Shown here: in pieces, positions 4,347-62,271 of the stretch
Numbering within the stretch: the stretch's first letter is position 1
Layout of the letters: each line of letters opens with the position of its first letter
Source: Eledone cirrhosa
Taxonomy: Eukaryota
DNA: 64,000 bases
Assembly: GCA_964016885.1 (NCBI GenBank)
Contig: OZ024743.1
Span: 286,006,001 to 286,070,000 of the forward strand
Direction of reading: 5' to 3'
The notes under the pieces: generated by a model
The model's database searches: none
What the model was told of the DNA's origin: nothing
The model's input: only the letters and a program-made list of their open reading frames with translations
Translations under genes and position numbers: made by a program

Positions 4347-5092
4347 GAAAGTCTGCCACTCTCTATGAAACAGCAAATCCTGATTGGGCTCCAACACTTC
4401 GGCTCGGCCGTGATCGTGCAAAAGATTTCCAAGCTGGTTCAGTCCGAGGTAAAACAAAACGCAAACGGAAATTGGATTCTAGTTCAGATGATACACTGTT
4501 TGCTCTGTCTGTTTGCAATTCAGAGTTGCAACAAAGGTGCCAATCTCTTACAAATGTTGGACCTGAATCCTACCGAAAAGCAGTTCATAAGTTTCTTGAA
4601 ACAAAAGAAGTTATGGATTTATTAATGCTTCCAGATGAAGTTTTTTCAACTCAACCTCCTTGTGAGCCAATTCGAGGAGAAATTTACCTTATGAAAATAG
4701 ATTCATCTCAAGAATCCAGTGACTGGACTAAAGATGGCTACAGTTGGTTAAATTTAGGATCAAATGACTTAATCCTGAATCAGAGCCCTGCTCTGCGTCA
4801 AAGTACATTTCGAATGTTGGTAAACAATGAGATTGAAACATGTCTACTGAAACATGTTTATCGGTCTTTCAACAATAATCAAAAAGTTGTCATTCATTAT
4901 GTCACTGATGAAAGACTCAGTAATAGTAAGTCTTATCCACATGCTATGTATATCACTGGACCTTTATCAGCTTCACAGACCCATTTAGGAATCACTCAGT
5001 ACTACCAGCAGCTAGTAGAAGATTGTAATGTTGACAGTCAAAAACCATCTGAAGCTCTCTGGGAGTTGGCCCCCACCAGCAAAGAAAAATCT
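4347..5092 (+). CDS. Internal coding exon: C-terminal end of a THAP domain followed by a CG-1-like DNA-binding domain (upstream exons not found in the window)
   Basis: Acceptor tttcacAG at 4345-46 (phase 1) and donor GTAAGT at 5093 (phase 0), with an open frame throughout. It starts (G)KSATLYETANPDWAPTLRLG, an invertebrate THAP C-terminal motif, then KTKRKRK (NLS-like). It continues PPCEPIRGEIYL...DWTKDGYSW...KHVYR...VVIHY, which resembles the CG-1/CAMTA signature (KDGxxW...RxYw...LVHY). Confidence 0.75.
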
Positions 5093-18456: not shown

Positions 18457-18999
18457 ATGCAAAAGCAAAGTATCAAGGTTTACAAAGCATCTTCTGGTAA
18501 TAAAATTGCGAGTGGTGAATGTAAAAGAAAAGCTATAACTCTTGAAGAAAAGCTAGATGTTATACAGCGTTTTGAACGTAATGAAAGAACATGTGAAATT
18601 GTTCGTGCAACCGGAATAAAGGAGTCTACTTTACGCACCATTAGAGACAATGCTGAAAAGATTAAAGCCAGCTACATTGCTGGAACAAGCCTTAGTGCTT
18701 GCAAATCAGTGAGATCGCGACCAAGGGAACTTGAGAAGATGGAGCGGCTTCTATGTATGTGGCTAGAAGATCAAACGGAAAAGCTATCAGGAACTAGCTT
18801 TCTTGCTATAAAAGAGAAAGCTTTATCAATTTATGAAGACCTGAAGAAGAAAGCTGAAAATCCGGCAATCGTACCCGCCTTTAGTGCTAGTAGTGGCTGG
18901 TTTGTTGGTTTTAAGAATCGTTATACTTTTTATAATGTAAAGTTTTGTAGTGAATCTAATAATGCAGACGATGAACGGGCTTTAACATTTCACTCCAAG
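18457..18999 (+). CDS. BTB gene A exon 1: CENP-B/Tigger-type DNA-binding region (HTH_psq plus HTH_Tnp_Tc5), transposase-derived, no DDE domain
   Basis: ATG at 18457; KRKAITLEEKLDVI...GIKESTLRTI, then MERLLCMWLEDQ...IKEKALSIY...FSASSGWFVGFKNRY. Donor AAG|GTAGAG at 19000 (phase 0). Confidence 0.85.
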
Positions 19000-19466: not shown

Positions 19467-19903
19467 CCTCTAACACACCAACAGCGTTCCTCTTTGGCTA
19501 TATCTGACTTGACACAGCCGACAGAGTTCAATGCATCTGACCAGTTGAAAGTTAATTCTAACAACGATATACAAAAGACTACCAAACCCTCCAATATGAA
19601 TGATGTGCATCTTTCTAGTCGTTCCATTATTGATCTTGAACAAACAGGGAGATCTTTTGGGGCGAAACCTCGCATGAAACGGTTACCAAAATTAAAACGG
19701 CAATTTAGATCCGGAGCTAAAGATTTATCACTAAACAGAGCGAATTTATCTCAGAGACCATCCAATCATATTAGATCTCACCAGCGGTGGCTGAAAGAGT
19801 CAACAGGTCGCTCTGTTGGAGAGCAGCACTTTGACTTAGTTTTAAATAAAAACTCCGTAGAATACAATTCAAAAGCACCGAAAAGTAACAGCAATTCCAT
19901 ATC
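19467..19903 (+). CDS. BTB gene A exon 2 (basic, Ser/Asn-rich linker)
   Basis: Acceptor ttttttctttttAG (phase 0), open frame PLTHQQRSSLAISD...NSNSI, donor TC|GTAAGT (phase 2). Confidence 0.75.
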
Positions 19904-20102
19904 GTAAGTATCTTAAATACATTCCTGTCCTTTTAATGCTGATTTGCAAAAGAAATCTACTTTTCATTTTATTTGTATACCATGATAATAAATTGAAGTA
20001 TTGTTTTTCATAATCTTAATGTGTAAAATTTCAATTTTAATGCATTTAGTATTTTATATTTGAAAATATTCTGATTTCTTTAACAATTCATTTTATTTAA
20101 AG

Positions 20103-20283
20103 ACATTCTCTGTCTGATGAAATAATAGTTCTTCCACAATCAACCATACCCTCTGTTCAGAAGGAGAAACGTACTCTAGTGGTTCCAAATCACCAAGTGG
20201 CAGTGATGTCCAACCTATTTTCCATGTGGAAAGTTGGGCGTTTGTGTGATTCATATATTAGTAATGGTACCACAAATATAATG
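20103..20283 (+). CDS. BTB gene A exon 3 (N-terminal part of BTB domain)
   Basis: Phase-2 acceptor tttaaAG; HSLSDEII...VPNHQVAVMSNLFSMWKVGRLCDSYISNGTTNIM; donor GTATGT. Homologous to 48011-48188 and 60224-60401. Confidence 0.88.
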
Positions 20284-21290
20284 GTATGTATGTTATGATT
20301 ATTTATGCCTTTTACCCAATATAAAATATGAATAAGTCATTAATATCATAAAATGTATATTTTATTTATTCAGAAGGCATTTTTTTATATATGAGATTAT
20401 AGCAATGCAAATTAAACGTTAAATCTAAAAATAATAAAGGTATTGAAATGTTACTTTAGAAGTGTTTAATTAGTTGTATATATTTTTATTAATATATCCC
20501 CTTTTTCAATGGTGTTAAGAGAACGTCAGAGTGATGGGGTTATTGTGCATCCCTTATGTTGATATTCCAAATTATGAGGAGGAATTAAAGGGCCATGTGA
20601 TGGAGTAATTTGAGGCTTTTATTTGTGTTCACAGGCCGTCAGTGAGAAGTGACATGTAAAGGAATTGGATCAGGTATAATGATGTGACGCACCAATTCTG
20701 GGGTATTTTACAGGAAAAATATCTTAAGCAATAATTCAATATCTTTGTTAGTGTTATTTTTTTAAATTAATGTTCTATTTGTATTACTATAGCCTTCTAT
20801 ATATTAAAAAAATGTTGTCTACATATTCCTTAATGCTTCAAGCAAGCTACAACACTCTTCTATTATTTACTCAATTATATTGGTGCAATAAAATGAGTTG
20901 TTGTAAATTTGTCAATATGTCAATACTCTGAATGTAAAAAGAATTGAGTCAGTGTAATAATTATATGTTGACTGAAAGATCAGCAGTTCATATCCTGCCC
21001 ACTGCTTCTTAACTTTCAATATGGCACAATTAAGCTATGTGTTATCTGGGGATATAATCTCTATCATAGGCAAGAGAGGCTATTGCATAATTGATAAATT
21101 TTTTGTTAGCAAAACCAGCAGAAGCATTCCTATAAAACGAGAGAAATATCTTTTGGGCATATCAAAGCTAAATTATGTTGCTGCATACTTCACCTTTTAC
21201 ATGGGATGTTACTCAGCAAGATAACATACACAACTATTTATTTTGAAAAATCCAACTGAAATTAGATATAGTCAATAATCATCAGCAACC

Positions 21291-21480
21291 TACGAGGGTT
21301 GGTTGAAAAGTTCATACGAAGGAGTGATGCTAGAGCTGTGAAATCTTGTGTGCATTAATTTCAGTTCTTATTAATAACTGCATTGTTTCTTTCCAGGGAA
21401 TCTGTTGAAAAATAAACCTCACTTGGTCATTCCATGAGAGTAGCTTGGTCAACCTATGGATATTTCAGTTGACCCTCGTA
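21291..21480. mobile_element. mariner-type MITE in intron 3 of gene A
   Basis: TIRs tacgagggttggttgaaaagttcata / tatggatatttcagttgaccctcgta. A related inverted copy lies at ~27190-27385. Confidence 0.75.
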
Positions 21481-21628
21481 GTAAAACATAGACTCCATAT
21501 GTTCTTCACCTAGCCCATATTTTGATAGAATCTAGTGATATGTCAGTAATCAATAATCTTAACAAACATATGTTCAATATATAAAGTGTATTTTGCCATA
21601 TTTATCCCAGATATATTTTATATTTCAG

Positions 21629-22681
21629 GTTCATAAAATGGTTTTGGGAGCTGTATGTCCAAAAGTACTGCCCATCCTTTATAACACCTCAAGCAGTTTA
21701 TTTCCTAAAGTGACATTTCCATCATCAGTCAGTAAAGAAGCTCTATTAGCATTTGCAGAGTACATGTACAGTGGTGTGTTAGATCTGAATGAAGATATTC
21801 TTGTCCAACTGAAGACTATTGGTGAAAGATTAGATATGAAAGATTTTGAAGAACTTTGTAGTAATGAAATAAACAAAGCCAAGGCAAAAGATATTTTGTC
21901 AGCTGTGGTGGAACCGTTGTTGGCAGAACCTTGTTCTTTATCAGGACTGTTCTCTCCCAGAACACAAGGAGATTCTAATGAGGTTCAAAACTCAATGTTA
22001 ATGAAAATACTTGGAAATATTTACAGCAATAATAACATGCAATCTGATGTTGGTGTTAATATTGCATCAACATCCAGTCCATCTTCTTCTGATGTAAGGT
22101 CTACAGAAAATATGACTACAGATCAGATTGTTGATATCAAAACTGAAATGGAACCAGAGATAGAGCCTACAACAAATCAGAACTCTCTACAGTTAAAAAT
22201 AGAACCATGTAGTCCCAATGAAAATCAATATAATATCCAAGAAGAATTATTCATGGATATTGGTAACATTACTTCCAATAATAATCTTCATCTCACACCT
22301 GCTTCTGGAAATCTCAATAAAGACAATGATTTAACAGTTACTTATTCAAATAATCAGTATAGAAATGATATAAATATGGATTCCAGTGATATCATCAATA
22401 TATCCGATATCCATCGATCTGAAGTGACTTGTTTATCACAACATACAGAAGACTGTGATAAAGAGACAGAAAATCAGAAAGAATTACAGTTAATTTCAGT
22501 AACATCTGCAACAGGCAATATAAGTGAAGACAGTCTCAGCAATAATTCTGATTTGATAGAGATCTCCAGTACCATGTGCACAAATACAGACCCACTTCAA
22601 ACATCAAATTCTAGACCATACCCTGTTAGCCTTTTTTCTGTGAATGGCAGTAAAATTCCAACAACATTACCAGATAGTTGA
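21629..22681 (+). CDS. BTB gene A exon 4 (rest of BTB/POZ domain plus acidic/Ser/Asn-rich tail, stop TGA)
   Basis: Acceptor tatttcAG; VHKMVLGAVCP...VSKEALLAFAEYMYSGVLDLNEDILVQLKTIGERLDMKDFEELC is the BTB core. 1053-nt open frame. Confidence 0.9.
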   Translation, partial: VHKMVLGAVCPKVLPILYNTSSSLFPKVTFPSSVSKEALLAFAEYMYSGVLDLNEDILVQLKTIGERLDMKDFEELCSNEINKAKAKDILSAVVEPLLAEPCSLSGLFSPRTQGDSNEVQNSMLMKILGNIYSNNNMQSDVGVNIASTSSPSSSDVRSTENMTTDQIVDIKTEMEPEIEPTTNQNSLQLKIEPCSPNENQYNIQEELFMDIGNITSNNNLHLTPASGNLNKDNDLTVTYSNNQYRNDINMDSSDIINISDIHRSEVTCLSQHTEDCDKETENQKELQLISVTSATGNISEDSLSNNSDLIEISSTMCTNTDPLQTSNSRPYPVSLFSVNGSKIPTTLPDS

Positions 22682-30128: not shown

Positions 30129-30172
<44 letters not shown>

Positions 30173-30186: not shown

Positions 30187-30232
<46 letters not shown>

Positions 30233-30246
30233 ATATATATATATAT

Positions 30247-30305
<59 letters not shown>

Positions 30306-30563: not shown

Positions 30564-31000
30564 AAATTCTGGAATCATATTCCACCATTCCTACAAACTG
30601 TCAATTCTTTTTAAATTCACGTAAATACAAGCTTTTCTTTCTTTCTCTTTCTACACATATATATATATCCTAATAATTATTTAAAATCTACCTAGCGTCT
30701 AAAAATAACGTTTTTTTTTCAGCCCTATACCTCAACCTCATTTGCATATTCATCTTAATAATTTGAAATATTTGACTTTTCCTCTCTTTCCCCTCTTTCC
30801 TTTTACTATCCAGGAAAAACTTGAACTGTTAAGATCTTCCTGGATATGTCAATATTTATAAAACAAATTTTGTATTTTATCTGATGAGAGCGTACCAAAG
30901 TTTTGGTACCCTTGAAATATATATAATAGAATAAATATGGTTTTATAAATATAGTTTCCATTTATTAATATCATTGATATATATATATATATATATATAT

Positions 31001-35215: not shown

Positions 35216-35219
35216 ATAA

Positions 35220-37010: not shown

Positions 37011-37016
37011 TAGTAG

Positions 37017-37370
37017 CAGTCTGCGACTGACCTAGGTTCTGCTGCACGTCAGGCTGAGGAGGCCAAACTCCTCAAATACCGGTCGCTCTCTGACAGGTTT
37101 GCGGTCATACCCCTGGCAGTGGAGACTTCTGGTGTCCTCGGCCCCAGGGCTACCTCCTTACTCATCACCATAGGCGCTGAGCTGGCCAGCCGTAGGTGTG
37201 AGCCCCGCGAGTTGGAGTGGCTTTTCCAGCGCGTCTCCCTTGCTGTCCTCCGGGGAAACGCCTTCTCCATTCTGTCCGCCGGGGCTGTGGGTGGGCCCCA
37301 TCGCGTATCATTTTTGTAAATATGACAACAATCTATCCAACTATACTAACATCTATATAGATGTAACATA
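37017..37370 (+). mobile_element. 3' end of a CRE-clade (restriction-like endonuclease) non-LTR retrotransposon
   Basis: Open frame 37017-37319: SAARQAEEAKLLKYRSLSDRFAVIPLAVETSGVLG...LFQRVSLAVLRGNA, the characteristic CRE C-terminal RLE motif. GC-rich, followed by an AT-rich 3' UTR. Confidence 0.75.
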
Positions 37371-37454
37371 AATATTTATATATAAAGCATATATATAACA
37401 AATATTTATATTATATGCTATATATATATATAGCAAATACATAACATAAATATT

Positions 37455-40275: not shown

Positions 40276-40304
40276 TATATATATATAGCATATATATAAC
40301 ATAT

Positions 40305-41010
40305 ACAGTTCCTGTATGAGCAAGGCATGGTCAGCCGACCAGACACTACCCACAACAGGACAACCCGTCTAACCCATGCTAGCGTGGAAGAACGGACGTA
40401 AAACGGTGATGATGATGATGATACTATGGAACTGGAAGACCTAGGAACATTTGGGATGAACCGATAAAAACTGACCTTGCCCAATTAAACCTCACAAAAT
40501 GAAATGAAACAAACATGCAGAGGACACTAGTCTGCCGCAATCATCCCCTCCCCCCATCCATTCTTCCTTGTTTTAATACCCTGCTCACACCTGTTAAATA
40601 TCCCACGCACCTAATTAATGTCAAACCTATTTACCTACCCCCATCCCTAAACACCTCACCTGCCCAGCCCATTAAAGCTAGACATGCTCGACATCTGATC
40701 TCTCCCAATGCCGTTGCCATGACAAAAGGAACAAAGTCCACTCTGTACGCTAATCTGGTGCCATAACAACAAAAGCACCCAGTTCCTTCTGTATAGTGGT
40801 CGTATTGGTGATACGAGAAAAAGCACCCAGTCCACATTGTAACGTGGTTGGCATTAGGAAAGGCATCCAACCGTTGAAAATAAGCCAAAACAGAGATTCG
40901 TATGAGCAAGACGTGGTCACCCGACCTGACTTGTCTCATAATATGACAACCCGTCTAATCCATGCGAGGATGGAAAATTATACGTTAACCGATGATGATG
41001 ATGATGATAT
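40305..41010 (+). repeat. RTE-tail SINE-like repeats
   Basis: Copies at 40305-40420 and 40720-41010 ending in (GAT)n. Confidence 0.7.
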
Positions 41011-42439: not shown

Positions 42440-42560
42440 AGTATATCTCAGCTGCGCCTCTCTGACAAGATGGCGAAAGCATTGGCGCAGACAATAGCCA
42501 GTGACACCCGCTGCATCAGCCACTCCAGCCCACAGGGCTCCTTTCTCATTGCAGGAAACA
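42440..42560 (+). promoter_or_regulatory. Candidate promoter/5' end of BTB gene B (YY1-like motif)
   Basis: Local GC/CpG-richer patch with CAAGATGGCG at 42466-42475, ~950 bp upstream of the gene B ATG. That ATG is preceded by a splice acceptor (ttctttgaAG, 43400). Confidence 0.35.
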
Positions 42561-43409
42561 TTGACAATGTTATTGACTATCAAAAGACAGAAAAATCTAC
42601 TGCATAACCCGTTGATGCTACTATTATACAGCATTATCCACAAAATTGCTGCAAAATCTAGCGAAACCAAAATAAAACAGATTTTTCAACTAATCAAAAC
42701 ATAGATCAACTCTGTAAACATGGAACTCTTATGCAGAAGTTTCGAATAGTCGCCAGTACAATATATGATATTTATAAATAAGTTGCAGTAATATATTTCT
42801 AGGTTTCACTGAGTGAGGAGAATTTGGTACTAAAGAAAAGTATGTCAGACATGTAGTTTAATGAGATATGCTTTAGTTTGTATGAGTCAGTTGCTAAAGA
42901 ATTTGAAAATGGCCTTTAATTAAAAGGAGAAACAATCAAATACAACAGAAAAAATGTATTTTCTCAACAATTGGTTGCAAAGATCCAAAGATTGTCATAG
43001 GATATTTTATTTTGTTCATTCATTAATTATTGTCAGAGGGGGGTATACTAAAGTATCTCAGATATTGTAACACATTTATTTGCATATTCTTTCGACAATA
43101 TGGAATATCTTAAGAGTTATGGAGGAGTGGGGGTCTATGCTATGGTATATCTTCTGACAATAAAGCATAGGACATACCACAGAGGTTTAAAACAGAAGTA
43201 GTTAATTAAATTTATTCTCTGGTAATTTATATAGTAGTTTCTAACACAAAAGTAAGTTGTCATTCATGGAAGAGAGATTTCAAATATATGGAATTTTAGT
43301 GCATTAAAAAGCTTATGTCATGTTTGTAGCCTGAAAACAATGAACTCAGAAAAAGCTCTAAATGAAATATCTTCAAATTTGTCTTTTTGTTTCTTTGAAG
43401 GGAGAAATA

Positions 43410-43842
43410 ATGGGGAGGTTCAAGAAGTACCGTAATGAAATAGAAAGGCAAGCAGCCAGAAAACAACGTGAACGAGAAAGACGTGCTACTGAAACAAATG
43501 AAGAAAGAGAAGAAAGATTGAGAAAGCTGTCTATAAATGCACAAAAAAGAAGAGCTGAGGAATCAACAGAAGAAAGAAAACAGAGGCTTAGAAGATTGTC
43601 TCAGAATGAATTGAAGAGAAGGGCTAAAGAAACAAATGAAGAAAGAGATGAAAGACTTAAGAAACTCTCTCAATATGCAAAGAACAGGCGTGCTGCAGGG
43701 CCAAACAATCATAATACTCAACTAGGTAAAAAAATGGATCGAGGCCAGAATCAAAATGCTAATGGTTACATTAAAGTCAACCTTTTAAAGTATTATGATG
43801 TCCATGAAGACCATCATCAGGAGCAGATGCAACACAATCCTG
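43410..43842 (+). CDS. BTB gene B exon 1: STPR-like 23-aa repeat DNA-binding domain
   Basis: ATG at 43410; three exact 23-aa repeats ETNEEREERLRKLSINAQKRRAE / ESTEERKQRLRRLSQNELKRRAK / ETNEERDERLKKLSQYAKNRRAA (43491-43697). Donor CCTG|GTATCT (phase 1). Confidence 0.8.
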
Positions 43843-44395
43843 GTATCTGTTCCTCTGAACTTTTAATTCATTAGGGTGATAATATCTAGTTTAATTTCTA
43901 TACAATACTTAATTGCCTTTCTCACCTTCTTAACTGATGTAAATATTCTGTAAAACTAGCAGCTATCAATTGTGCGCAGATTATTTGAAACTCTCTCTTT
44001 AAACTTATTTCAATATTTTATATTATTATTCTACATAGTGGTTTGCAACAAATAAAATACCTTGTTGTTTTCTGAGTGTTATTCTCAAGTAATCCCCATG
44101 AGTGCTTTTAGCAGTGTCCATTCTGTTGCAAGCATTCGAGTTAGGTCTCCAGATTGAGGATACCTCCCATTAAAATTGGAAGTACCAGAAAATGCCCTTC
44201 CTAAGCAATTTAAAAAATGTTTTTCAAAACCCAAACTGCTCTAGTATGTGTTCCTACTTGAGAAATAGATCAGATATTAACTAAATTATTTTGAAATCTC
44301 GACAGTACACTAATGTATCTGTTATTTTTTTTTCTATCCAAACTGTTTTAAATAATTCTAATGAAGATTAATTAGATTTGCTTATTTTCTCTTAG

Positions 44396-44537
44396 GAAAC
44401 AAATTAAGTCACTTAAAGAGAACATCAAAATGGAAAAGGAATGTCTCTAAAACATTACAGATAGAAGAGATAATCCCAGGCACAAACTCTAGACAGAAGA
44501 ATTCAAGACTATCACAAACCAGAAGTAGATTAACATC
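44396..44537 (+). CDS. BTB gene B exon 2 (basic linker)
   Basis: Acceptor ttttctcttAG (phase 1), open frame GNKLSHLKRTSKWKR...NSRLSQTRSRLT, donor TC|GTAAGT (phase 2). Joins exons 1 and 3 in frame. Confidence 0.72.
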
Positions 44538-45422
44538 GTAAGTGTTACTCTAATTTCTTTTATATAGGTGTCTTGATAAAAGGCATCTAGTACACTCTGT
44601 AAATTGGCATTTTAAAGGGCATCCAGTTACAGGAACTATGCAAAAATGGAATGTATCATGCTCTGATTAAGTACTGATTGGTTTGTAACAACCCACCTAA
44701 CCCATGCCAGCATAGAAAACCAGACATAAAATGGTGATGATAATTGTGTTTTCTGTAGCTCTGATTAATTCTGCATTGGAAATTATATCATCTACAAACA
44801 GAAGATCCCGTGGTCATTTATTTCTGAATAACAACTTCAAGGAAAAAAAGATAAATCAGAACTTTAGAAACTCTTAAAGGAATTTTTAATTTTACCAAAA
44901 CCATTATATCAACATGCATGGTCTAAGATGCTCTCATTTGTTGTTTACAACCAGCTTTCTTACTATGCATGAAGCTACAGTGTTTTCAGGCCAATAAATA
45001 CAAGAGTGTATTAGTTAATCTTTACCAAATTCTCTGGCAATTGCTTGAAAAATAGAGCATTGTATTGATACAAAATTAAATTATGTTCTAGACACTTTAA
45101 TTCAACTTTGCATTGGTCTGGCTATATCTTCCACCACCATCATAATTTGTTTCATTAACTTAAGTTCCTTGTAACTTACTTTCTAGCTATCAAGGATAAT
45201 GTCATTTTACACAATCTTAATGAAAAATAGAAGCTAGTATAATATCTACTCTCTCATGCTCACATCATCAACTTCAGTACAGTATATTGCCATTTTTCAT
45301 AGTCTTGTTACCTTGTCTGTAAGCTGAACAATGTCAAATCTGATTTCATTATTTCCTCCAATGTTACATTTTCAAAAGCTGTTTGATTCAGTTTCTTATT
45401 TAGATGGTAAGATGTTATCAAG

Positions 45423-45495
45423 TGTCCCTTACCTCAATGGTTAGAGCACCTAGCCAGTATCTGGGAGGTATAGAGTTCAATTCTTTGTAGTGGCT
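45423..45495 (+). pseudogene. Degenerate tRNA-like sequence or SINE head
   Basis: A-box-like tacctcaatgg and B-box-like gagttcaattc, with stem cctag/ctggg around loop ccagtat. Acceptor stem is poor. Confidence 0.3.
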
Positions 45496-46319
45496 CTTAA
45501 CATATTTTTATCTCAAGGGGTCCTTACCCAATTTTTATAAACTATTTTATAGTAACTGATTGTAATTGCAGTTATTTTCAGCACCTGAGCTTCCTACATC
45601 TTCTTATATATATAGCAGAAGCACCACCCCTTGGGAGATTTTCTACTAGTCAATGTATACAAAATGTGTGAAAATGAAAAATTATACCTTTCATGTATGG
45701 ATCATACAACCTCATACTGACGTATTTAATTTTGCAGTTTATGTAATGATGAGGTTGTGAAGACCAACTTTATAAAATTAAGCCTCACAACAGAGATGAC
45801 AAAGGGTTGTAAGGGCTCGTGAAGACATGGTCAACAGCATACAATGTGACCTGATTTATCCCCATGTCCCCCCTTCCGCAAACACTCCCTATCCTTACCA
45901 TCACTACACACCCCTACACCATCCATGCCCCCTCCAGTATCCACTCCTTAGCTGCTGCTCCCACTAAAGCTCTTAGATACCCTTACACACACACCCTAGT
46001 AGATACTCTCTCCACTGCTATGCACTTCACCCATGCCCCCTCCACTATCTATCACTCCTTAGCTATTCTCTCCATCACTTCACTTCTCCTTCCTGGCACA
46101 GACGAATACCATCCCCCACTCTGCACTATCCCCCCCCCACACACACACACACACACAATGACTATATCTGCTTCAGTGTTCTCATCACCACATCCCCTCT
46201 CCTTTATGCTGTTAAAAGACTCCTCCTTCACCACAGCCAAATCACACCATACTTGCCATAACGTAATACTTATCTTCTATCACTCCCACCCACCCCACTC
46301 ACCATAGAACAGAGAGGCT

Positions 46320-47110
46320 CTTTTGTTGGGACCATACCAACAACCTCTCAAGCATTGGTACCATGAAAATGCACCTGGTACACCCTGTAAGGTGGTTGGC
46401 AACAGGAAGGGCACCCTGCTGTAAAAATCATGCCTAAAAAGGTTGAGAGGACCCTTCAGTAATGTTATGCCACAGCATCTCTAGTGTTAGTGATTTATAC
46501 AGTAAACACTCTCAGTATACACTGTAGAGGGGTTGGTGATATGAAGGGTATCGAACTATAGAAAGCTTGCCAAACAAAGGGTTGTGAAGACCCTTCAGTT
46601 ATGTCAAGGACATGACAGCTTCCCTAGTGTTCATGATCTACACAATAAATGCATGCAGTACACACTGTAAAATGGTTGGTAATAGGAAGGGCATTCAGCC
46701 ATAGAAACTTTGTATGCAGCAGATGTACATGGGAGATAAGCACTAAGAACACACAAGAAATAGATTCTCTCAATTGCTTGGGAGTCTCGTTAGAAATCGT
46801 TGACAGCTTTTGTTACCTAGGTGACCTAATCAGAAGACTAAGAGCAGGATGGGAAAATGCCAGGGAACTACTACCTTTGTTGACAACAAAAGGTTTCTCT
46901 GTATGAACAAAAGCATCACTATATGATGCACACTACATTTGTCTCCTCTTATACTCAGTTTCATTCTCAGCTCATCCATTCTTTGCCATATATGCACATT
47001 AACATCACTCATCCATCGAAGCATGCTTGCTTCATTTCTCTCCAGCCTTCACCTTTCTGTGTTTACTGCCCATGTTTCATTTGTATGTAACATTGCATTT
47101 GATACAATTC
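46320..47110. mobile_element. Tail-SINE tandem units and RTE fragments in opposite orientations
   Basis: ORF 46649-46906 ends FVCSRC...EIVDSFCYLGD...RAGWENARELL; minus ORF 46830-47024 MLRWMSDVNV. Confidence 0.65.
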
Positions 47111-47519
47111 ATCATTGTCATCATTTTCACATCTGCTTCTTCATGATAGTATGAGTTGGATGAAGCAGTTTTCTTTGGCTGGATGCTTTTCCTAATACTA
47201 ACTTATAATTATTTTCTTCTTCAAACCGTTATCCTAATTCCAGTCTAATGCATATTGTAGCATCATCACCATTTAACATCCATTTTCCATGGTTACATTG
47301 TTTAAACATGTCACATTATAAGGCTCGACATGTCAGGTGACTACATGTTACATATATTTTAAGTTTGGTTTTCCATGGCTGCTACCCTTCCTAATGCCTA
47401 TCACTTTACAGCGTGTACTGGGAACTTTTTTTTATGCACTAGTATTGTCACCTTACAGAGTAAAAGCTCTTATTAACACCATTGCTTTATCTAAGATTGG
47501 GTCATTATATTAACGGAAG

Positions 47520-47685
47520 AGGGTCGGACGCCATGCTTTGCAACAAAGAGTTACGGCCCTTGCCATTCTGAGTTCAAATCCCGCCGAGGTTAACTTTGCC
47601 TTTCATCCTTACGGTGTCGATAAAATAAAGTACCAGTAATACACTGGGATAATTGCTGGTCTTGTGCCAAAAGTAGAAACAATTA
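47520..47685 (+). mobile_element. tRNA-derived SINE (MetaSINE-like core)
   Basis: gagttcaaatcccgccgaggttaactttgcctttcatccttacggtgtcgataaaataaagtaccagt...ataattgctggtcttgtgccaaaagtagaaacaattat. Confidence 0.8.
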
Positions 47686-48010
47686 TATTAACTTGTGCCA
47701 CCTTCCACCACTGAAACTTGAGTTTGTAGAGCATGAATATTTTTGTCAGTTGGAATGTTTTCCTAAACCACTTAAATATTTTAAGTAAATTATATTGGGA
47801 AAAAACCAAAACAATTGATACCAAATTAGTTAAATTAAAAATTTATTTATTTATGTGTACTCCTAAAGTGAGCTGTAACAAGTTGAATTATTTTAGTCTC
47901 CCTGCAAAAAATGATTCTTATATTACCATATAGATAACCATTGATGTTTTTTTCTATCCTCTTATCTCTATATATCTAATCAATGCATATTTTATATTTT
48001 GGATTTAAAG

Positions 48011-48188
48011 CCATGCCCTGTCTGATGAAATCTCTGTTGTTCCACAATCGACTATACCTGAAGTTCATGAGAAACATATTTTAGTAGTTCCCAATCACCA
48101 AACAGCAGTAATGTCAAATCTGTTTTCTCTTTGGAAGACACGACGCCTGTGTGACTCGTACATTAGTAATGGTACTACGAATGTAATG
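48011..48188 (+). CDS. BTB gene B exon 3 (N-terminal part of BTB domain)
   Basis: Phase-2 acceptor tttaaAG; HALSDEISV...VPNHQTAVMSNLFSLWKTRRLCDSYISNGTTNVM; donor GTATGT. Confidence 0.88.
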
Positions 48189-48229
48189 GTATGTATGTCA
48201 TAATTCTATTATAATTCCATTCACATTTA

Positions 48230-49255
48230 TCATCATCATCATTGTTTAATGTCCATCTTCCACGCTAGTATAAGTAGGATGGGCTGTCCCTTTGTGAGAG
48301 ATCAGGTCGAAGGACTGATCCACTCACACAGAACTGATTTTGGTTTGGTTTCTGCAGCTGGATGCCCTTCCTAATGCTAACCATATTTACAGTATGTGCT
48401 GGGTGCTTTTTGCCATGTCACCTACATGACCACTTTATTACATGGATTGGGTACTTTTTGTTATGACACCTACATGACCACTTTACAGTGTGGACTGGGC
48501 GCTTTGTTGTGACACTTACATGACCTCTATATAGTGTGAGCTGGGCTCTTTTGTTGTGGCTCCAGGGAAAAGGATCACATTATGGAGGGGGTTGGGAAAT
48601 TGGGGGCATAAGTATAGGGGAGGTTTATAGGAGGGGAGATGGTAGGGAATGGTGTTGCCTACTAGGTATATGCCTCAGCCCGAGAATAATACTAGGCAGG
48701 TCTTCTGTAATTCTTCATAGCGCCAGAGGTCATGGCCCTGTGGCATCGAGCAGTGGTGTAATTGAGCAAAGTCAGCTCTTATTACCTCATCCCAAGTCTT
48801 CCTAAGCCTGCCTACTCCATGGCTACCATCAACTTGAGTGCTCAGCACATTTTTATACAGTTGTCATTCTTCATACGCATCACATGTCCATACCAATGCA
48901 ATCTCCTCTCCTGCACACATCTGATCCCTCTTATGCCTAATTTCTTGCACAGTTCATTTATGCTTTGCTGTTTGCAATGTTGCTATTGCACATCCATCGA
49001 AGCATGGAGGCTTCATTTCTTTCCAATCTTTGCAGATCCTCAACAGATAGTGCCCAGGTCTCATTGCTGTGTAACATAGTTGTTCTTATACATGCATCAT
49101 ACAGTTTGCTTTTTATTTTGAGGAAAAAAAAACTTTTGTAGTTAACAGCGGTAGTAGATCCCTGAACTTTCTACAACCTGATCTCACTCTGGCTACTGTA
49201 CTTTTGAAATACCCTTCCCCACCATTGATTTGGTCACCCAGGTAACAGAAGCTAT
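48230..49255 (-). mobile_element. RTE LINE 3' portion plus tail repeat in intron 3 of gene B
   Basis: (CAT)n tail, ~45-bp tandem units, and minus-strand RT C-terminal DNA (ttctgttacctgggtgacc...). Confidence 0.75.
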
Positions 49256-49615
49256 CTTATGATAGTGTAAATTGATATCCAGGACCTAACTGGTACTTTA
49301 TTTTATTGACCATGGAAAGATGAAAGGCAAACTTTACTTCAGCAGGACTTGAACGCAAAACAAAATTGTTTTAACCAATTTTTTTTTTTTTATACTATGT
49401 ATAGTTGTATATTTAAGACATTAATCTCTAACATTTAGTCATGCAGTTATGATTTAAAGGTGTCATAAAGTATTCAGTAACTGTGAAGCAGTCAAGATTA
49501 TATTAAATTTAGTAACAGGCTATTGATGAATGATTTTGCAAAGATATATGTAACATACTATCAAATTGTCCATTTGTCATATTTATTCCAGATGTATTTT
49601 ATCATATGTTTTCAG

Positions 49616-50623
49616 GTTCATAAAATGGTTTTAGGAGCTGTATGTCCAAAGTTATTGCCTGCTCTTCACTACTCATCAAAAGGTTCATTTCCCAAAGTGG
49701 TATTTCCAAGTTCGGTCAGTAGGGAAGGACTTTTAGCATTTATAGAATACATGTACACTGGTGTGTTAGATCTGAATGAAGATATTCTTGTCCAACTGAA
49801 GACTATTGGTGAAAAACTAGAAATGAAAGATTTTGAAGAACTTTGTAGTAAAGAACTGAAGAAAGCTAAGGCTAAAAATATTTTATCAACTGTGGTGGAA
49901 CCTTTGTTGGCAGAACCTTGTTCTTTATCAGGACTGTTCCCTTCCAAAAATCAAGTCGATACTAATGAGATTCAGAATTCTACATTAATGAAGTTACTTA
50001 GAAATATTTGCAATAATACTAGCATACAAACTGATGTTGCTATTAATGTTGCATCAACATCTAGATCCTCTCCGTCTTGTGCTTCTGATGTAAGATCTGC
50101 AGAAAATATGGCTACAAGCCAGATTCTTGATATCAAGACTGAAATGGAACCAGAGACAGAGCCTGCACCAAACCAGAATTCTCTAGAGTTAAATAGTCCT
50201 GAAGAAGAAATGTGCATGGGTATTAACAATGTTCAGTTAAAGCCTGCTGCCACTGATGGAAATATTAATAAAGACAATGGGTTAACAGTTACATATTCAA
50301 ATAACCAGTATAAAAATGATATAAACATGGATTCCAGTGATATGAATGTATCTGATATCAATCAATCTGAAGAGACTTGTTTATCACAGCATACAGAAAA
50401 CTGCGATAAAGAAACAGATAATCAGAAAGAATTACAGTTAATTTCAGTAACATCTGCAACAGGCAATATAAGTGAAGACAGTTTCGGCAATAATTCTGAT
50501 GTAATGGAGATCTCCAGTACCATGTGCACAAATACAGACCCACCTCAAACATCAAATCCTCAACCATTCCCTGTTAGTTTATTTTCTGTGAATGATGATG
50601 AAGATGCAACTCTATTAATATAG
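49616..50623 (+). CDS. BTB gene B exon 4 (BTB/POZ core plus tail, stop TAG)
   Basis: Acceptor gttttcAG; VHKMVLGAVCP...EYMYTGVLDLNEDILVQLKTIGEKLEMKDFEELC. 1008-nt open frame, paralogous to 21629-22681. Confidence 0.9.
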   Translation, partial: VHKMVLGAVCPKLLPALHYSSKGSFPKVVFPSSVSREGLLAFIEYMYTGVLDLNEDILVQLKTIGEKLEMKDFEELCSKELKKAKAKNILSTVVEPLLAEPCSLSGLFPSKNQVDTNEIQNSTLMKLLRNICNNTSIQTDVAINVASTSRSSPSCASDVRSAENMATSQILDIKTEMEPETEPAPNQNSLELNSPEEEMCMGINNVQLKPAATDGNINKDNGLTVTYSNNQYKNDINMDSSDMNVSDINQSEETCLSQHTENCDKETDNQKELQLISVTSATGNISEDSFGNNSDVMEISSTMCTNTDPPQTSNPQPFPVSLFSVNDDEDATLLI

Positions 50624-51509
50624 TGGACTTTATCAATTAAATTTCCCAGTATTCAGATTTTGTACAAAATATTTGCAATTATTTTTAATTGCAAATTTCA
50701 GATTTCATTTCATTATTTAAATTCTATTAAAGCAATCACCTACTTAATCATTAATTTTTTTGTATCTTATTTTTATCAATAAACTTTTGAAAAACATTTT
50801 CAGTTTTGGTTTTGGTGGATAATTTCATTACATGTCTTTTGAAATGTATGAAAAACTGAAAGAATGTTTTAGTGAATAAATAAAAAATTTTCTGGTTTTA
50901 ACAGTAAAAAGATATAGTGAGTACCACTGTGATAATTTTGTATTACCTGTATTGCTGAAACATTTCTCATTGTTTTTTAAAGGGATTACCTGGTGTCAGC
51001 TACTTCCTGTGAATAACAGTAGTAATGTATAAATGAAAACTGGTTCAGTAGCATATTGTTGAGCTATAAAATCAACTGTAACTCCCTAAATCTCAAGATT
51101 TACCTTACTACATACAACTTCTCTCTCAAATCATATTGTCATAAAAAAGGTAGAACACATTAGATAACTGTCTGAATCTCCATTGCTCTTAAAGTTACAG
51201 TTTGAAGTATTGGATGATTGTGGTGTCAATATAGCAAACCCCCTCAAGGTCTTCATGGATTGTCATGTCAGCTGAAGGTGAGTTGCTTCACTCACCCGAC
51301 TAAAAAAAAAAAATAGAATGAGACTTTTCCAGAGAAAATATGTCTACTTCTGAAGCCACTGGGGTGGTACAAGGATGATGAAAAAATGTCTGTTAAGTTT
51401 ACCCTTTACCTTTTGACCATCTGATGCGTTATATAGGAACACCATTGCCAGTGGTTATTGCAGAGATATGTACTAATATTTTTAAAACAAAAATAATATA
51501 CAAAGTAGT

Positions 51510-51640
51510 ATCAAGAAGTTTTTGGACTAGTTCTGTAGTGCACCAACAGATGGCAACACGGTTGCGTGCGCAGTGACCTTCATGTGCCAGTCTTACGAGT
51601 GACATTGCTGTGTTCACTTCCCAAGTTGTGAAATTTTACC
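51510..51640 (+). mobile_element. 5' fragment of the mariner family seen at 16290-16905
   Basis: ggactagttctgtagtgcaccaacagatggcaacac...ttcacttcccaagttgtgaaattt matches the reverse complement of 16755-16885. Confidence 0.65.
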
Positions 51641-52806
51641 TGTTCCAGCTGAAGCTATGCTGGGGCACCACCATTATTATCAACTTATTGAATTTTTATC
51701 TTTGTCCATATATATTTCATATAATATATTTTTATATTAGAAATGTACTATTTGTAGTCCAGTTTTCCTTAGGATATACAGAAACACACACATACACTTT
51801 TTTTAGTCTGTTGCACTTAAAATTCCTGCATTTTCAATCAAAACTCTTAGTGTGGTAACAACTCTATCTCCCTATCTATCTTTCACATACACACTCTCTC
51901 TGTCTCACTGTATTGCTTTCTCAATAACAACAACCACCTGTCATTATAGTGAAAGTTTTTTTTTTTTAGTCTGTGTTGCGTTTTCTCTATGCTGAAGGAC
52001 ATACAGAAACACTCACACAAACAACAACAAAAAACTGTATTCTTTTCGTTTGTTTGCAGGTTAAGTTTTAGTTAGAGAGAGGGGGCATGGGGAGTATCAT
52101 TTCCATTACTATATAAGGAGAGCCTGATGGACGGATTGACAGGCATTATTATAATTTAGACTAGCTGGTTCTGTGCCGTCAAAAATGACAGCTAATTGTA
52201 ATATACATACATAATATAAAAAAGAGATGTTTGTTTGTTGGTTGGTTGCTTCCTTCACACAAGTGATACAAACATACAAACACACAGTCAATGTGTGTAG
52301 CCAAATCACTACACATACACACAGTTGTGACGAATCTTTGCTGGATTCTATAGTTTCTCACCCCCTCCTTCTTCAGTCATCACATAGATGTGTGAGTATG
52401 TAGCGTGGTAGACGTTACACGATGATGATGAAATATAATTTACACAAACACACACATAATCATAACAGCCAAGTCGCTATGCATATAGACACACAAATGT
52501 AGTGAATAATGGATGCTGCTACCCCTTCCTTTCTCAGTTTGTCATCACCCCTTACTTCCTCAGTCATCTCTTGTGACAGACAAATACATAAGCGTATTAT
52601 CTACTTATATATATAACCAGCAATTTCTCTGTCTGTCTGTCCGACAGTGGAAACACGTGCGTAGAGAGAGAGTGAGAGTGAAAGAAAGAGACAGACTACG
52701 AGAGGGAGAGAGAGAGTGAATAGACGCTAAAACACGTGCTACAGAAACATTACCTTCCCCTCTCCACTGACTTTGGTCACTGAGGCCGAGGGAATCGCGC
52801 TGAGCA

Positions 52807-53381
52807 CGTCATAATGACGTAATGCAGACATACAGACAGATATAAGGGCGCAACGTTATATCTATGTATCTATCTAAAAAGAAAGACTAAGAATTATATA
52901 GAGAGAACGCTAAATCGCCTAATGCGGTCCCTAGGGCATTGAAAATTTGAAATAATTTTTGCTCAAAACACTCACAGGACCATAAGTATTAAAGTTTGAA
53001 AACAATCGGTTGGATGGTTCTCAAGTTTTAGTGAGCTGACAGACAGACAGACATTCTCTGTTTTAGATATATAGACTAGCAGAAAACCACACCCCGGGTG
53101 GTTTTCTGCTAGTCTATATATCTAAAACAGAGAATGTTTGTTTGTCTGACTCCCTAAAACTCAAGAACCACCCAACCGATTGTTTTCAAACTTTACACAT
53201 GTAATACTTATGGTCCTGCGAGTGTTTTGAGAAAAAAAATATTTCAAATTTTCAATACCCTAGGGATTAGGCGATTTAGCGATCTCTCTATAATTCTTAG
53301 TCTTCCTTTTTAGATAGATACATAGATATAACGTTGCACCCTTATAATATGTCTGTATGTCTGCATTACGACATTATGACG
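52807..53381. repeat. ~575-bp imperfect palindrome (two inverted copies of a Helitron-like non-autonomous element)
   Basis: Arms 52807-53090 and 53098-53381 are reverse-complementary around the loop accccgg. They contain 'ctagtctatatatctaaaa...(tgtc)n', resembling Helitron/Helentron-type MITE termini. Confidence 0.85.
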
Positions 53382-53699
53382 CCATATGAGTGTGTGTGTG
53401 TGTGTATATATGTATATATATAATGTGTGTATATATATATATAGTGTGTAACGTTTTTAGAAATATTTACTTCTGCATTCACAGATTGATTTTTTTAGTT
53501 TCAGGAGATCCCGTTAAGGGTGAAAGCAGCGATTCTTTGCTTTTAATCTGTTATTTTAATATATATATATAATTATATATTCGTATATAGATATTTTTGC
53601 ATACTCAATAACAAAATATAAACAAACGTATTTATTTCACGAGGCTCGATAAGGATAAATATATATCAAATATATAAGAACCCTAGAGCAAATCCCGAA

Positions 53700-53850
53700 T
53701 TACTCAGTGCATTACTGGTACTTTATTTTATCGACCCCGTAAGGGTGAAAGGCAAAGTCAACCTCGGCCGGATTTGAACTCAGATCGTAAAGGGACGTAA
53801 CTATGCTGGAAAGCATGGCGTCCGACCCTCTACCGATACTGCCAATCCAA
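53700..53850 (-). mobile_element. tRNA-derived SINE (MetaSINE-like core)
   Basis: actggtactttattttatcgaccccgtaagggtgaaaggcaaagtcaacctcggccggatttgaactc...gccaatcca. Confidence 0.8.
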
Positions 53851-54864
53851 ATGTTGAGACATAGTAAATGGAGTTACAGCGATGAGTTATATTGAATTAT
53901 AAAATGAATAAAACAACAATGAATACTACCTCCAGCTTCTATATATTTATTGTTATTACTCTACAGGAAGCTGGATGCAATCATAAGGTCCCTCTGCGTG
54001 GAACCTTGGGCAAGTGTCATGTATCAACCAAAATGAAACTGCGTGGTCGTAAACTGTTTGGAAGCCCGTTGGGTGGACTGTAAATCTTGTCGCCGTTTCC
54101 ACTGGAAATTACGTTATGTATGGGTTCATATGTTTGTTGAATGCTCAGCCACTTGCACGATAATTTCACGAGGAAGCTGTTTCGTTGAGTGAAAAACTCA
54201 TTGTAGAAATCAACGGAAGTTCATGGCATCCCACAGTGGATGTTGCTTGGAATTACTTCGAGTAAACCATTTTAGTCATTATAACTGGCTTTCCATGCGT
54301 ATTGGTTTCTGATTTAGGCAACAAGATCAACATTTCTGGCGGAAAGGGAAAGTCAATTAAATCGTCACCAGTGTGTTATTGGTGCTTTATTTATCGACCC
54401 CTTAAGGAGGAAAGGCAGAGCTAACATCGTAAAGGGCCATAACTATGCCGCAAAGTATGTCTACGGATACTGCCAATTTATTGAAATTAATATCATTAAA
54501 AAGGATTGCAACAGAATCAAAAATAGTCTGTAATTACCTCCCTTTACTTCCCCTCTTTTGAAAATTTTTTTGTTATACTTACTCTTCAAACCACGGATCT
54601 CGGAAGCTAACGAACATTTCCGAAAACAAATTTGTTTAAAAATAGAAAAAAACCTAACGAAAAACAAATCGAAAATGCTGTAATGTCCCTTCATTTTTAC
54701 TATTAATATATCTGTTTATGCTATCATATTCTTTAATGTCTAAAGCATTACAGGCTAAATTATAAAAGATTACAATACTTCTCTAATCTCGGATATCGCT
54801 GCATCAATCATCTTTATCATCGCATCACACAGTTTCTTAGGAAATCCGATTACAGTAACAGATA

Positions 54865-55321
54865 ATGGCAAGGCCAAAAAAATACAAGACTGAAGCAGAA
54901 AGATTAGCAGTCATGCGACAACGTCAAAGAATTAAAAGAGCTAACGAAACACCTTTAGAAAGAGATCGAAGATTGCGGATATTATCTATGAATGAACTGA
55001 AACGACGTCGAAGCGAAACAGCTGAAGAGAGAAATGAGAGACTTAAAAGGTTGTCTGTAAATGCACGTAAGAGACGAGCTAAACAAATGATAAACCAGAG
55101 AAAGGAGAAGCTTAGAAAATTGTCTGGGAGTGAAATGAAAAAACGAGCCAGCGAAACGGATCAGAAAAGAAACGAGCGTGCATCAGAACCAACCTGTCGT
55201 ACTCAACTGGGTATCGGGACAAGAGGCCGAAAGCGGAATTCTAATGGTATTAAAATGGACTTGACTAACTGTTTGGATGACCACAAAAATCATTTCCTGG
55301 AGCGGCTGCAACACGACCCTG
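54865..55321 (+). CDS. BTB gene C exon 1: STPR-like 23-aa repeat DNA-binding domain
   Basis: ATG at 54865; MARPKKYKTEAER then ETPLERDRRLRILSMNELKRRRS / ETAEERNERLKRLSVNARKRRAK / QMINQRKEKLRKLSGSEMKKRAS. Donor CCTG|GTATCT (phase 1) at the same position as in gene B. Confidence 0.8.
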
Positions 55322-59270: not shown

Positions 59271-59523
59271 AAAATTCTTTACTTGGATGTAACTCTCATT
59301 TTATAGAGAAGTTTGAAGTTCTTGTTGAAAAATCGGAACTGAATTCCATCCCATCTTCCCAACTCCATTGTGGTGAAAAAAGAAAATTGAAAAAAGTCTC
59401 TGGAAATTGTGTAAATCAGAAACAGAAAAACAAAACCGGAACACACAGAAACCAATCAACCTCAGTCAACAGTTCTAATGAAGTGAATTCAAGATTATAC
59501 CAAAATAGTACCAATACAGTGTT
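59271..59523 (+). CDS. BTB gene C exon 2 (linker with KRKLKK basic motif)
   Basis: Acceptor ttttcattcAG (phase 1), 253-nt open frame ENSLLGCNSHF...GEKRKLKKVSG...NSRLYQNSTNTV, donor TT|GTGAGT (phase 2). Joins exons 1 and 3 in frame. Confidence 0.72.
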
Positions 59524-60223: not shown

Positions 60224-60401
60224 CCATTCTGTTTCCAGTGAAAGCTTACTTCACCCACAATCAACTGTACCTAATGCTAAGGAGAAACGCATTTTAGTGA
60301 TTCCAAATCACCAAGTGGCAATGATGTCCAATCTATTTTCTATGTGGAAAGCTGAACGTTTGTGTGACTCATACATTAGTAATGGTACTACGAATATATT
60401 G
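60224..60401 (+). CDS. BTB gene C exon 3 (N-terminal part of BTB domain)
   Basis: Phase-2 acceptor tttcaAG; HSVSSES...IPNHQVAMMSNLFSMWKAERLCDSYISNGTTNIL; donor GTATGT. Confidence 0.88.
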
Positions 60402-61248: not shown

Positions 61249-62271
61249 GTTCATAAAATAGTTTTAGGAGCTGTATGTCCAAAATTAATGCCTACACTTC
61301 ATTCATCAAATGATTCATTTCCCAAAGTGGTGCTTCCATCTTCAGTCAGTAAAGATGCTCTATTAGCATTTGCAGAGTACATGTACAGTGGTGTGTTAGA
61401 TCTGAATGAAGATATTCTTGTCCAACTGAAGACTATTGGTGAAAAATTAGATATGAAAGATTTTGAACAACTTTGTATTAATGAATTGAACAAAGCTAGA
61501 GCAAAAAATATTTTGTCAGCTGTGGTGGAACCTTTGTTGGCAGAACCTTGTTCTTTATCAGGATTATTCTCTCCCAGAACACAAGGGGATTCTAATGAGG
61601 TTCAAAACTCAATATTAATGAAAATATTTGGAAATATTTACAGCAATAATAATAACAACAATAATAATAACATGCAAGCAGATGTTGCTGTTAGCATTGC
61701 ATCTAGATCCAGTCCATCTTCTGCTTCTGATGTAAGGTTTGCAGAAAATATGTTTGTGGACCAGATTAACATCAAGACTGAAGTGGAACCAGAAATAGAG
61801 CCCTCTATTCCTGATGAAAATCAAAATTGTATCCAAGAAGAATTATTCTTGGATATTGGTAATATTACTTCCAATAATGACCTTCATCTCACACCTGCTT
61901 CCACTGATGGAAATCTCAATAAAGACAATGATTTAACAGTTACTTCAAATAACCAGTATAGAGATAATATAGAAATGGATTCCTGTGATATCATCAATAT
62001 ATCTAATATCCATCGATCTGAAGAGACTTGTTTATCACAACATACAGAAAACTGTGATAAAGAGACAGAAAATCAGAAAGAATTACAGTTAATTTCAGTA
62101 ACATCTGCAACAGGCAATATAAGTGAAGACAGTCTCAGCAATAATTCTGATGTAATAGAGATCTCCAGTACCATGTGCACAAATACAGACCCACCTCAAA
62201 CATCAAATTCTCTACCATACCCTGTTAGCTTATTTTCAGTGAATGACGGTGGATATACAACTATAGAGTAA
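61249..62271 (+). CDS. BTB gene C exon 4 (BTB/POZ core plus tail, stop TAA)
   Basis: Acceptor gttttcAG; VHKIVLGAVCP...EYMYSGVLDLNEDILVQLKTIGEKLDMKDFEQLC. 1023-nt open frame with a poly-Asn run. Confidence 0.9.
   Translation, partial: VHKIVLGAVCPKLMPTLHSSNDSFPKVVLPSSVSKDALLAFAEYMYSGVLDLNEDILVQLKTIGEKLDMKDFEQLCINELNKARAKNILSAVVEPLLAEPCSLSGLFSPRTQGDSNEVQNSILMKIFGNIYSNNNNNNNNNMQADVAVSIASRSSPSSASDVRFAENMFVDQINIKTEVEPEIEPSIPDENQNCIQEELFLDIGNITSNNDLHLTPASTDGNLNKDNDLTVTSNNQYRDNIEMDSCDIINISNIHRSEETCLSQHTENCDKETENQKELQLISVTSATGNISEDSLSNNSDVIEISSTMCTNTDPPQTSNSLPYPVSLFSVNDGGYTTIE

Follow-up and report, generated by a model that had tools for sequence, protein, structure and literature searches.

Predicted STPR-BTB genes in Eledone cirrhosa and a probable exchangeable-head BTB family in coleoid cephalopods

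A 64,000-nucleotide stretch of the Eledone cirrhosa genome (GenBank assembly GCA_964016885.1, contig OZ024743.1, positions 286,006,001 to 286,070,000 of the forward strand), hereafter called the window and numbered from its first letter, holds two neighboring genes, B and C, whose predicted products begin with tandem repeats of the STPR type and continue into a BTB domain. We consider it probable that B and C are intact STPR-BTB open reading frames encoding dimeric DNA-binding regulators, and that both are members of a BTB family of coleoids in which the N-terminal region, or head, is exchangeable. The features observed directly, on which this joint reading builds, are open reading frames, domains, tree positions, annotated isoforms and, in a relative, the chain of splices. 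An earlier analysis of the window (the original prediction) described the STPR repeats of both genes and their fusion to BTB; it overlooked the main point, which is that STPR is one among many exchangeable heads on the BTB family.

Genes B and C lie on the plus strand, and each has four exons that encode, in order, STPR, linker, BTB and tail (586 amino acids [aa] in B and 624 aa in C), with no internal stops; every intron has GT-AG borders, and the phases run 1, 2 and 0. In gene B, exon 1 (43410..43842) starts with the ATG at 43410 and encodes a basic lead-in helix, three STPR repeats (43491-43697) and the start of the linker; exon 2 (44396..44537; phase 1 to 2, AG/GT, in frame) encodes linker, and exon 3 (48011..48188) the N-terminal part of the BTB domain with its beta1-alpha1 extension. 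A GT..AG joint connects exon 3 to exon 4 (49616..50623), which encodes the BTB core, a low-confidence tail and the stop; its fold was assigned from the Octopus sinensis orthologue P0001. In gene C, exon 1 (54865..55321) starts with the ATG at 54865 and encodes a lead-in helix and STPR repeats; it is followed by linker exon 2 (59307..59523), exon 3 (60224..60401; N-terminal BTB part) and exon 4 (61249..62271; BTB core, tail and stop). The STPR exon ends identically in B (43842) and C (55321), at a phase-1 donor reading CCTG|GTATCT. Alternative donors at 43726 (B) and 55211 (C) were rejected because their phase (2) is incompatible with exon 2, and the bridging contigs described below reach 43843. 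An acceptor at 59271 in gene C (in frame, 636 aa) was dropped for 59307 (624 aa), which agrees with the junctions of homologues.

Both STPR exons had been called first exons. They are the first coding exons, but perhaps not the first transcribed exons: three contigs extend 123-210 letters 5' of the STPR exon of B without aligning to 43200-43403, and a pyrimidine tract and AG directly precede the ATG of B. A YY1-like motif at 42460-42480, ~950 bases upstream of this ATG, may mark the promoter for a non-coding 5' exon of B.

The 23-residue period reported for both exons was confirmed. Self-identity among lags 2-39 is highest at lag 23 (0.42 in B and 0.28 in C), and 0/20000 shuffles of either exon matched this value at any lag from 5 to 39. 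The STPR identity was likewise borne out: the Pfam STPR profile (PF21107; gathering cut-off 27 bits) matched B at 81 bits and C at 53.2 bits, and the sole PDB sequence match of the B head at E <= 1 was silkworm FMBP-1 (5d23, E 9.5e-11). A third STPR-BTB paralogue, gene D (C4:286076445-286084567; 655 aa), starts 6.4 kb past the window end and has four canonical repeats (Pfam 59.2 bits; E1, T/S2 and R9 in 4/4). In B, three canonical repeats follow the lead-in helix (E1, T/S2 and R9 in 3/3); C has two canonical repeats and a degenerate third with Q1/M2/K9 (together 54946-55152; E1, T/S2 and R9 in 2/3 full repeats), then a fourth that is broken off.

Among the FMBP-1 residues that contact DNA are R6, R9, L10, M13, S14, Y16, R20 and L21 (PMC4856987). 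R6, R9, L10, S14 and R20 are present in 3/3 repeats of B and 2/3 of C, and M13 is replaced by L. The first ET is residue 28 in both B and C, and, as noted above, the donor is the same, in line with the claim that the two exons keep start position, donor and register; the repeat types, however, are differently ordered. Positions 16-17 read NA-NE-YA in B, NE-NA-SE in C and NE-NA-SE-YA in D, and the repeat-by-repeat identity matrix is ambiguous. Because of this difference in order, equal repeat position may not mean homology between B and C.

The AlphaFold model of P0001 agrees with an STPR fold: it predicts helices at residues 30-50, 53-73 and 76-96 (predicted local distance difference test [pLDDT] score ~95), each of 21 residues with 2-residue breaks, as the STPR repeat unit requires. 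In the same model the BTB domain has pLDDT 81-97, a beta1-alpha1 extension (E241-243, H247-259) is present, and the linker and tail are of low confidence. Foldseek ranked the BTB structures of ZBTB9, PLZF and BCL6 first (22-26% identity); with the full P0001 model as query its list held BTB-containing structures only, and FMBP-1 was not among them. A sequence-profile search of the PDB placed a Kelch-family BTB first, then MIZ1/BCL6. The BTB domain of exon 4 lies above the Pfam cut-off in both B and C. Pfam scans of STPR-BTB proteins returned neither BACK nor Kelch for any of them, no Rep (Helitron_like_N) domain or PIF1 helicase after STPR in B, C or orthologues, and no C2H2 zinc fingers in B, C or orthologues; as the BTB domain is also internal, these proteins fall outside the ZBTB family proper. 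The FxLRWN (TTK-type) motif is absent, and the extension aligned there reads ILVVPNHQ.

The join of STPR to BTB, for which the original prediction knew of no precedent, is found in contigs of a gene-B orthologue and in annotated homologues, and is predicted from sequence in C; in each gene a linker exon intervenes before the two BTB exons. Sequencing data comprised eight runs from two studies; four runs were aligned to the gene B region (43200-51000). In two of the four, the STPR exon is followed within a single contig (X2 record 8 and X3 record 14) first by exon 3 and then by exon 4, and 4/4 runs show exons 3 and 4 of B joined across a GT..AG intron. At the place of exon 2, which in B is shorter than in the Octopus orthologue, the bridging contigs have ~210 unaligned letters, and the exon 2 junction was not observed among E. 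cirrhosa reads. Run X5, whose pieces are identical to the window, contains the exon 3-4 joint; its mean depth over the STPR exon of B is 0.44, and this low cover was not counted as evidence either way.

Annotated proteins with STPR and BTB, all unnamed predicted gene models, occur in O. sinensis (XP_036357332), O. vulgaris, O. bimaculoides (XP_014774303) and Argonauta. A search of 1.84 billion representative sequences returned 48 proteins at E <= 1e-10; of 20 proteins looked up by name, those with names were cephalopod, except for one weaker snail match (E 3e-9). No STPR+BTB cluster was among those shown by the Atlas, where STPR clusters scored 0.82 (a lead only) and BTB clusters 0.91. One O. 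vulgaris model, P0007, has a head and linker like those of O. sinensis P0005 and a BTB tail like that of P0005's neighbor P0008, which may reflect either cross-gene splicing or a prediction artefact.

We regard it as extremely unlikely that the STPR exons are chance Helitron remnants near BTB genes and that the fusion was created by gene prediction. STPR matches are numerous in the genome (at least 176) and the homologues are predicted models, but the same exon type, donor and phase stand ahead of three tandem BTB domains, and no RepHel remainder adjoins the STPR exons in the lists of open reading frames. Moreover, in comparisons spanning four species the STPR exon has changed less than the linker, and the single contigs that connect the STPR exon of B to its BTB exons largely refute an artefact for that gene.

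Conservation also agrees with the selection suggested earlier. Identity between B and P0001 is 84% in STPR and 87% in BTB, compared with 59% in both linker and tail; between D and the Argonauta protein P0014 it is 80% in STPR and 78% in BTB, compared with 32% in the linker and 31% in the tail. The ratio of nonsynonymous to synonymous divergence (dN/dS) between paralogues is below 1 in STPR (0.41-0.54; 69 codons, rough Nei-Gojobori estimate), and for C versus D it is 0.41-0.51 in every region. The latter values bear on the proposal that working STPR-BTB genes are limited to B and D, with C a duplicate that is in decay or seldom used. The third repeat of C lacks E1, T2 and R9, its fourth is broken off, its STPR branch is four times as long as that of D, and the read support obtained is for gene B. 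Nevertheless, the four exons of C are open with GT-AG introns, the C-D ratios are low throughout, and the homologues P0005 and P0010, annotated in two species, likewise end after three repeats; we therefore find decay of C quite unlikely and retain C beside B as an intact open reading frame.

The heads and BTB bodies of these genes appear to have had different histories. Synonymous divergence (dS) between B and C is 0.95-1.0 in head and linker, and 0.28-0.34 in BTB and tail. The BTB core of D is 97% identical to that of B, yet its head is of the C type: B and D pair by BTB exon (support 96/85) but not by STPR exon, and the STPR exon of B groups with Octopus B-type genes (100/100). This dS contrast and the discordant trees would fit homogenization of the 3' body, or head swapping. 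In the BTB tree (25 rows), the B/C/D type forms a clade (98/93) beside gene A, a BTB gene in the same window (100/98), with the THAP/CG-1-headed P0015 outside (96/91); P0015 is termed cuttlefish-type, as its pre-BTB stretch is the same as that of the Acanthosepion protein P0032. These positions suggest that an STPR head replaced the older head of A after duplication in octopods. Two alternative groupings, both chosen after a quick tree had been viewed, were rejected by the approximately unbiased test: a single clade of all STPR-headed BTBs (p-AU 3e-36) and a clade of the B/C/D type with cuttlefish P0017 (p-AU 8e-6).

Gene A shows more than one head on a single BTB. Its constant part (19467..22681, plus strand) consists of a linker exon (19467-19903) and two BTB exons (20103-20283 and 21629-22681). 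Head 1 (4347..5092, plus strand) encodes the end of a THAP domain and a CG-1-like domain, with the THAP start exon ~15 kb before the window, and head 2 (18457..18999, plus strand) encodes CENP-B_N and HTH_Tnp_Tc5; each ends in a phase-0 donor that fits onto 19467, and the resulting models are 878 and 737 aa long. Both combinations are annotated as isoforms in Octopus (P0013 for THAP/CG-1, P0012 for the CENP-B type). Similarly, LOC115209617 and LOC106872008, in two species, each have three isoforms on one BTB (P0004-6 and P0009-11), headed by STPR or by either of two CENP-B-type heads. In the cuttlefish, two alternative STPR-like heads occur on one BTB (CAE1165623 and CAE1165625). Two further BTB genes lie upstream of gene A (L059:5345-8376, L057:5017-7419, L060:6783-7085 and L080:6724-7299), preceded by open reading frames of CG-1-like, THAP, Brinker/Tc5 (two), FLYWCH (two) and CENP-B type; among these, annotated isoforms correspond to the CG-1 and THAP heads alone, and the others are candidate heads.

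A further set of heads lies upstream of a paralogue at C4:234.78 Mb. In the 140 kb preceding it, DNA-binding-type domains were found in 16/48 open reading frames on the same strand and in 0/32 on the opposite strand (filtered by length and low complexity, one added by hand, and frames across 10-kb fetch borders missed). The array (C4:234.64-234.79 Mb; L062-L065 and L081-L090) thus places at least 16 such frames upstream of one BTB and on its strand: THAP (seven), CENP-B/Tc5 (four), Psq (two), DUF3504 (two) and QRICH1 (one, below the cut-off). In O. bimaculoides the orthologue has isoform numbers up to X36, and 20 of its isoforms share an identical 534-aa C-terminus, although their heads are not all distinct. 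Other BTB paralogues are headed by FLYWCH, FAR1-like, Brinker or CG-1 domains. STPR-like 23-residue heads were identified on 6/7 further BTB paralogues tested (0/3000 shuffles each), none of which reached the Pfam STPR cut-off; the N-terminus of P0039 was dropped as a candidate, since 3000/3000 shuffles reached its 23-period value. An STPR-like open reading frame with a 23-residue period and no Pfam match (L072:3843-4253, minus strand) lies ~3.5 kb upstream of the BTB gene at C4:298.01 Mb. Overall, the cephalopod BTB family likely makes many regulators by swapping heads, many of them transposon-like, on a shared body.

We propose that each gene would combine exchangeable 5' coding exons, which hold transposon-type DNA-binding domains, with a 3' body that stays constant (linker, both BTB exons and tail). 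Every head seen is upstream of its BTB and on the same strand, and cis-splicing would therefore suffice to join them. By analogy with FMBP-1, the STPR helices may run along an AT-rich major groove, covering ~4 bp per 23-residue helix and reading mainly shape, which would give a footprint per subunit of ~12 bp for B, ~16 bp for D and fewer for C. The different target specificity suggested in the original prediction may then be modest, a matter of footprint length over motif, given that FMBP-1 reads shape more than bases. The BTB domain, as in ZBTB-type proteins, would pair two subunits and recruit cofactors, and the near-identical BTBs may permit heterodimers with unlike heads. B, C and D are likely octopod tandem duplicates of the gene A BTB body, with STPR supplanting THAP/CG-1; the 3' bodies would then have been homogenized between neighbors as the heads diverged. 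DNA binding, dimerization, the regulatory role and this order of events are what we infer from the observations above.

Several points weigh against this interpretation. Binding, dimerization and expression of the Eledone proteins are predictions only. B, C and D show one head each, and no close match to either helix-turn-helix head of the three-head Octopus gene was found within the 264 kb searched, suggesting that heads have been gained or lost; one of those two heads, sought genome-wide, had a best match of 54%. L21 of FMBP-1 is R in all of the B, C and D repeats, and Y16 survives in just the final repeat of B and of D. C has a decayed third repeat and a long STPR branch (0.32, versus 0.073 for D). 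The BTB domains are divergent (Pfam 25-38 bits), and the BTB trees used ~124 columns only. The bridging contigs come from one study of a ~88%-alike relative (52 differences in 440 letters) and are presumed to be RNA, and the splicing of C is read from its sequence.

If the repeats instead formed helices for protein or RNA binding, or if the BTB domain were a Cullin3 adaptor, these proteins would not be sequence-directed DNA binders. The helical repeats are strongly charged, and the PDB sequence matches include KLHL and KBTBD BTBs (one of them first). In nematode F-box genes, protein substrates have been suggested as the targets of a captured transposase helix-turn-helix (PMC12062965). Against this, the STPR-BTB proteins scanned lack BACK and Kelch, the model has the beta1-alpha1 extension of the transcription-factor type (PMC11426971), and the sister heads are recognized DNA-binding folds; a role of this kind is very unlikely, and DNA-binding regulators remain our preferred reading.

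The original prediction noted similar repeats at the N-termini of Helitron RepHel proteins, and this holds in the genome at hand: L061:2157-7310 (plus strand) is an intact 1718-aa STPR-Rep-PIF1 open reading frame with a long, near-identical STPR array, and HLE1 Helitrons carry STPR as a stable domain (HELIANO, PMC11417382). STPR matches number at least 176 across the 3.0-Gb genome, with 150 out of 2173 candidates scored; read by eye, the 30 top-scoring loci retrieved are mostly copied Helitron-type N-termini. The O. vulgaris protein P0035, a sister BTB isoform, is 43% identical over 104 aa to a local Helitron N-terminus from residue 1, which suggests that capture of Helitron heads does occur in the BTB family. 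B and C themselves are 28-35% identical to local Helitron STPRs and 37-39% identical to a host STPR open reading frame (BLASTP against a tiny database of three Helitron N-termini and two host-type frames, with low-complexity queries), and a genome search with the B exon at E 1e-6 yielded B, C and D only. A Helitron source for the heads of B and C is plausible, and we lean slightly towards it. HLE1 RepHel proteins share STPR with B and C, which lack the Rep, zinc-binding and helicase parts and are spliced host genes conserved across octopods. A separate frame, L001:1357-2031 (minus strand), has ~5 STPR repeats and, in frame, nothing else of a Helitron; it may be a host FMBP-1/ZNF821-like gene.

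A narrower form of the preferred reading makes the STPR-BTB proteins transposon silencers, whose RepHel-derived heads would bind Helitrons at their ends or internally and whose BTB domains would recruit co-repressors. The STPR of the intact RepHel and of most of the best loci is N-terminal, P0035 is Helitron-like from residue 1, and the modeled BTB fold resembles those of the repressors PLZF and BCL6. However, B and C are no closer to the local Helitron STPRs than to the host frame, the B exon finds B, C and D alone, and the heads are conserved to Argonauta (80%), a better fit to host targets than to an arms race. We judge silencing rather unlikely and keep to the broader view of regulators with exchangeable heads.

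Nearly all that is known of STPR function comes from a single silkworm protein, FMBP-1; other STPR proteins include ZNF821 and Drosophila CG14440/CG14442 (PMC4856987; FMBP-1 structures 5d23, 5d2q and 5d2s). B and C resemble FMBP-1 in their 23-residue tandem repeats, in E1, T/S2 and R9, and in the modeled 21-residue helices with 2-residue linkers. They differ in that their repeats are N-terminal, number two to three rather than four, are less alike mutually and are separated from BTB by a disordered linker; L21 is R, Y16 is mostly N, and binding is predicted. ZBTB factors such as PLZF, BCL6 and ZBTB9 share the long-form BTB with an N-terminal extension, whereas B and C have no C2H2 fingers and carry the BTB behind the DNA-binding part.

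The closest layouts are mod(mdg4), with ~30 isoforms, and lola, in which a BTB is combined with alternative DNA-binding-type exons (PMC11426971, PMC13490949). Several DNA-binding-type heads per BTB, as in those loci, are seen at gene A, at the three-head paralogue of Octopus and at 234.7 Mb; B and C show one head each in this genome. The order is inverted, however: the variable exons are 5' and the BTB internal in the octopus family, whereas Drosophila has a constant 5' BTB and variable 3' exons. In addition, the octopus heads come from unrelated folds (STPR, THAP, CENP-B helix-turn-helix, Psq, FLYWCH, DUF3504 and CG-1), and FxLRWN is lacking. In KCTD1 isoform b, a transposon-derived N-terminal exon (DUF3504) is spliced to a downstream BTB (PMC3212892), but there is a single head on a KCTD-type BTB rather than many heads on ZBTB-like BTBs in tandem genes. 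Mukherjee and Moroz (2023; PMC10027918) reported Octopus THAP and CENPB proteins with BTB/POZ and took the BTB as a transposon part; these very likely belong to the same gene family, and the words "Helitron" and "isoform" do not occur in its main text. We found no published description of the STPR-BTB join or of the head-exchange layout in a search that most subscription papers and supplements lay beyond. The parts are known, and the proteins are present but unnamed in databases.

More tentatively, and a little short of an even call, we suggest a coleoid "head exchange" in which a ZBTB-like BTB repeatedly captured unrelated transposon DNA-binding ends, alternative 5' exons, tandem duplication and homogenized BTB bodies would yield a large combinatorial set of heterodimers, and helix number and order tune the STPR footprint; as part of the same proposal, and no more firmly, Helitron STPR arrays would have been captured on at least three BTB lineages. 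B, C and D are natural variants with three, two and four canonical repeats in different orders, which makes the idea of a modular reader testable. The family is a case of one effector domain repeatedly gaining transposon-type DNA-binding heads, for which the vertebrate KRAB fusions are a comparison case, and is a convergent, inverted counterpart of mod(mdg4) and lola. Gene counts of one protein per locus would miss this head repertoire in cephalopods.

Repeats were also noted elsewhere in the window. Long inverted repeats at 29939-30557 (~98% self-match) and 52807-53381 (~87%) are probably similar to miniature inverted-repeat transposable elements. Inspection of open reading frames by eye identified long interspersed nuclear element reverse-transcriptase fragments and short repeats in the gap between genes A and B (23000-41000), and a decayed mariner-like element at 12336-13300.

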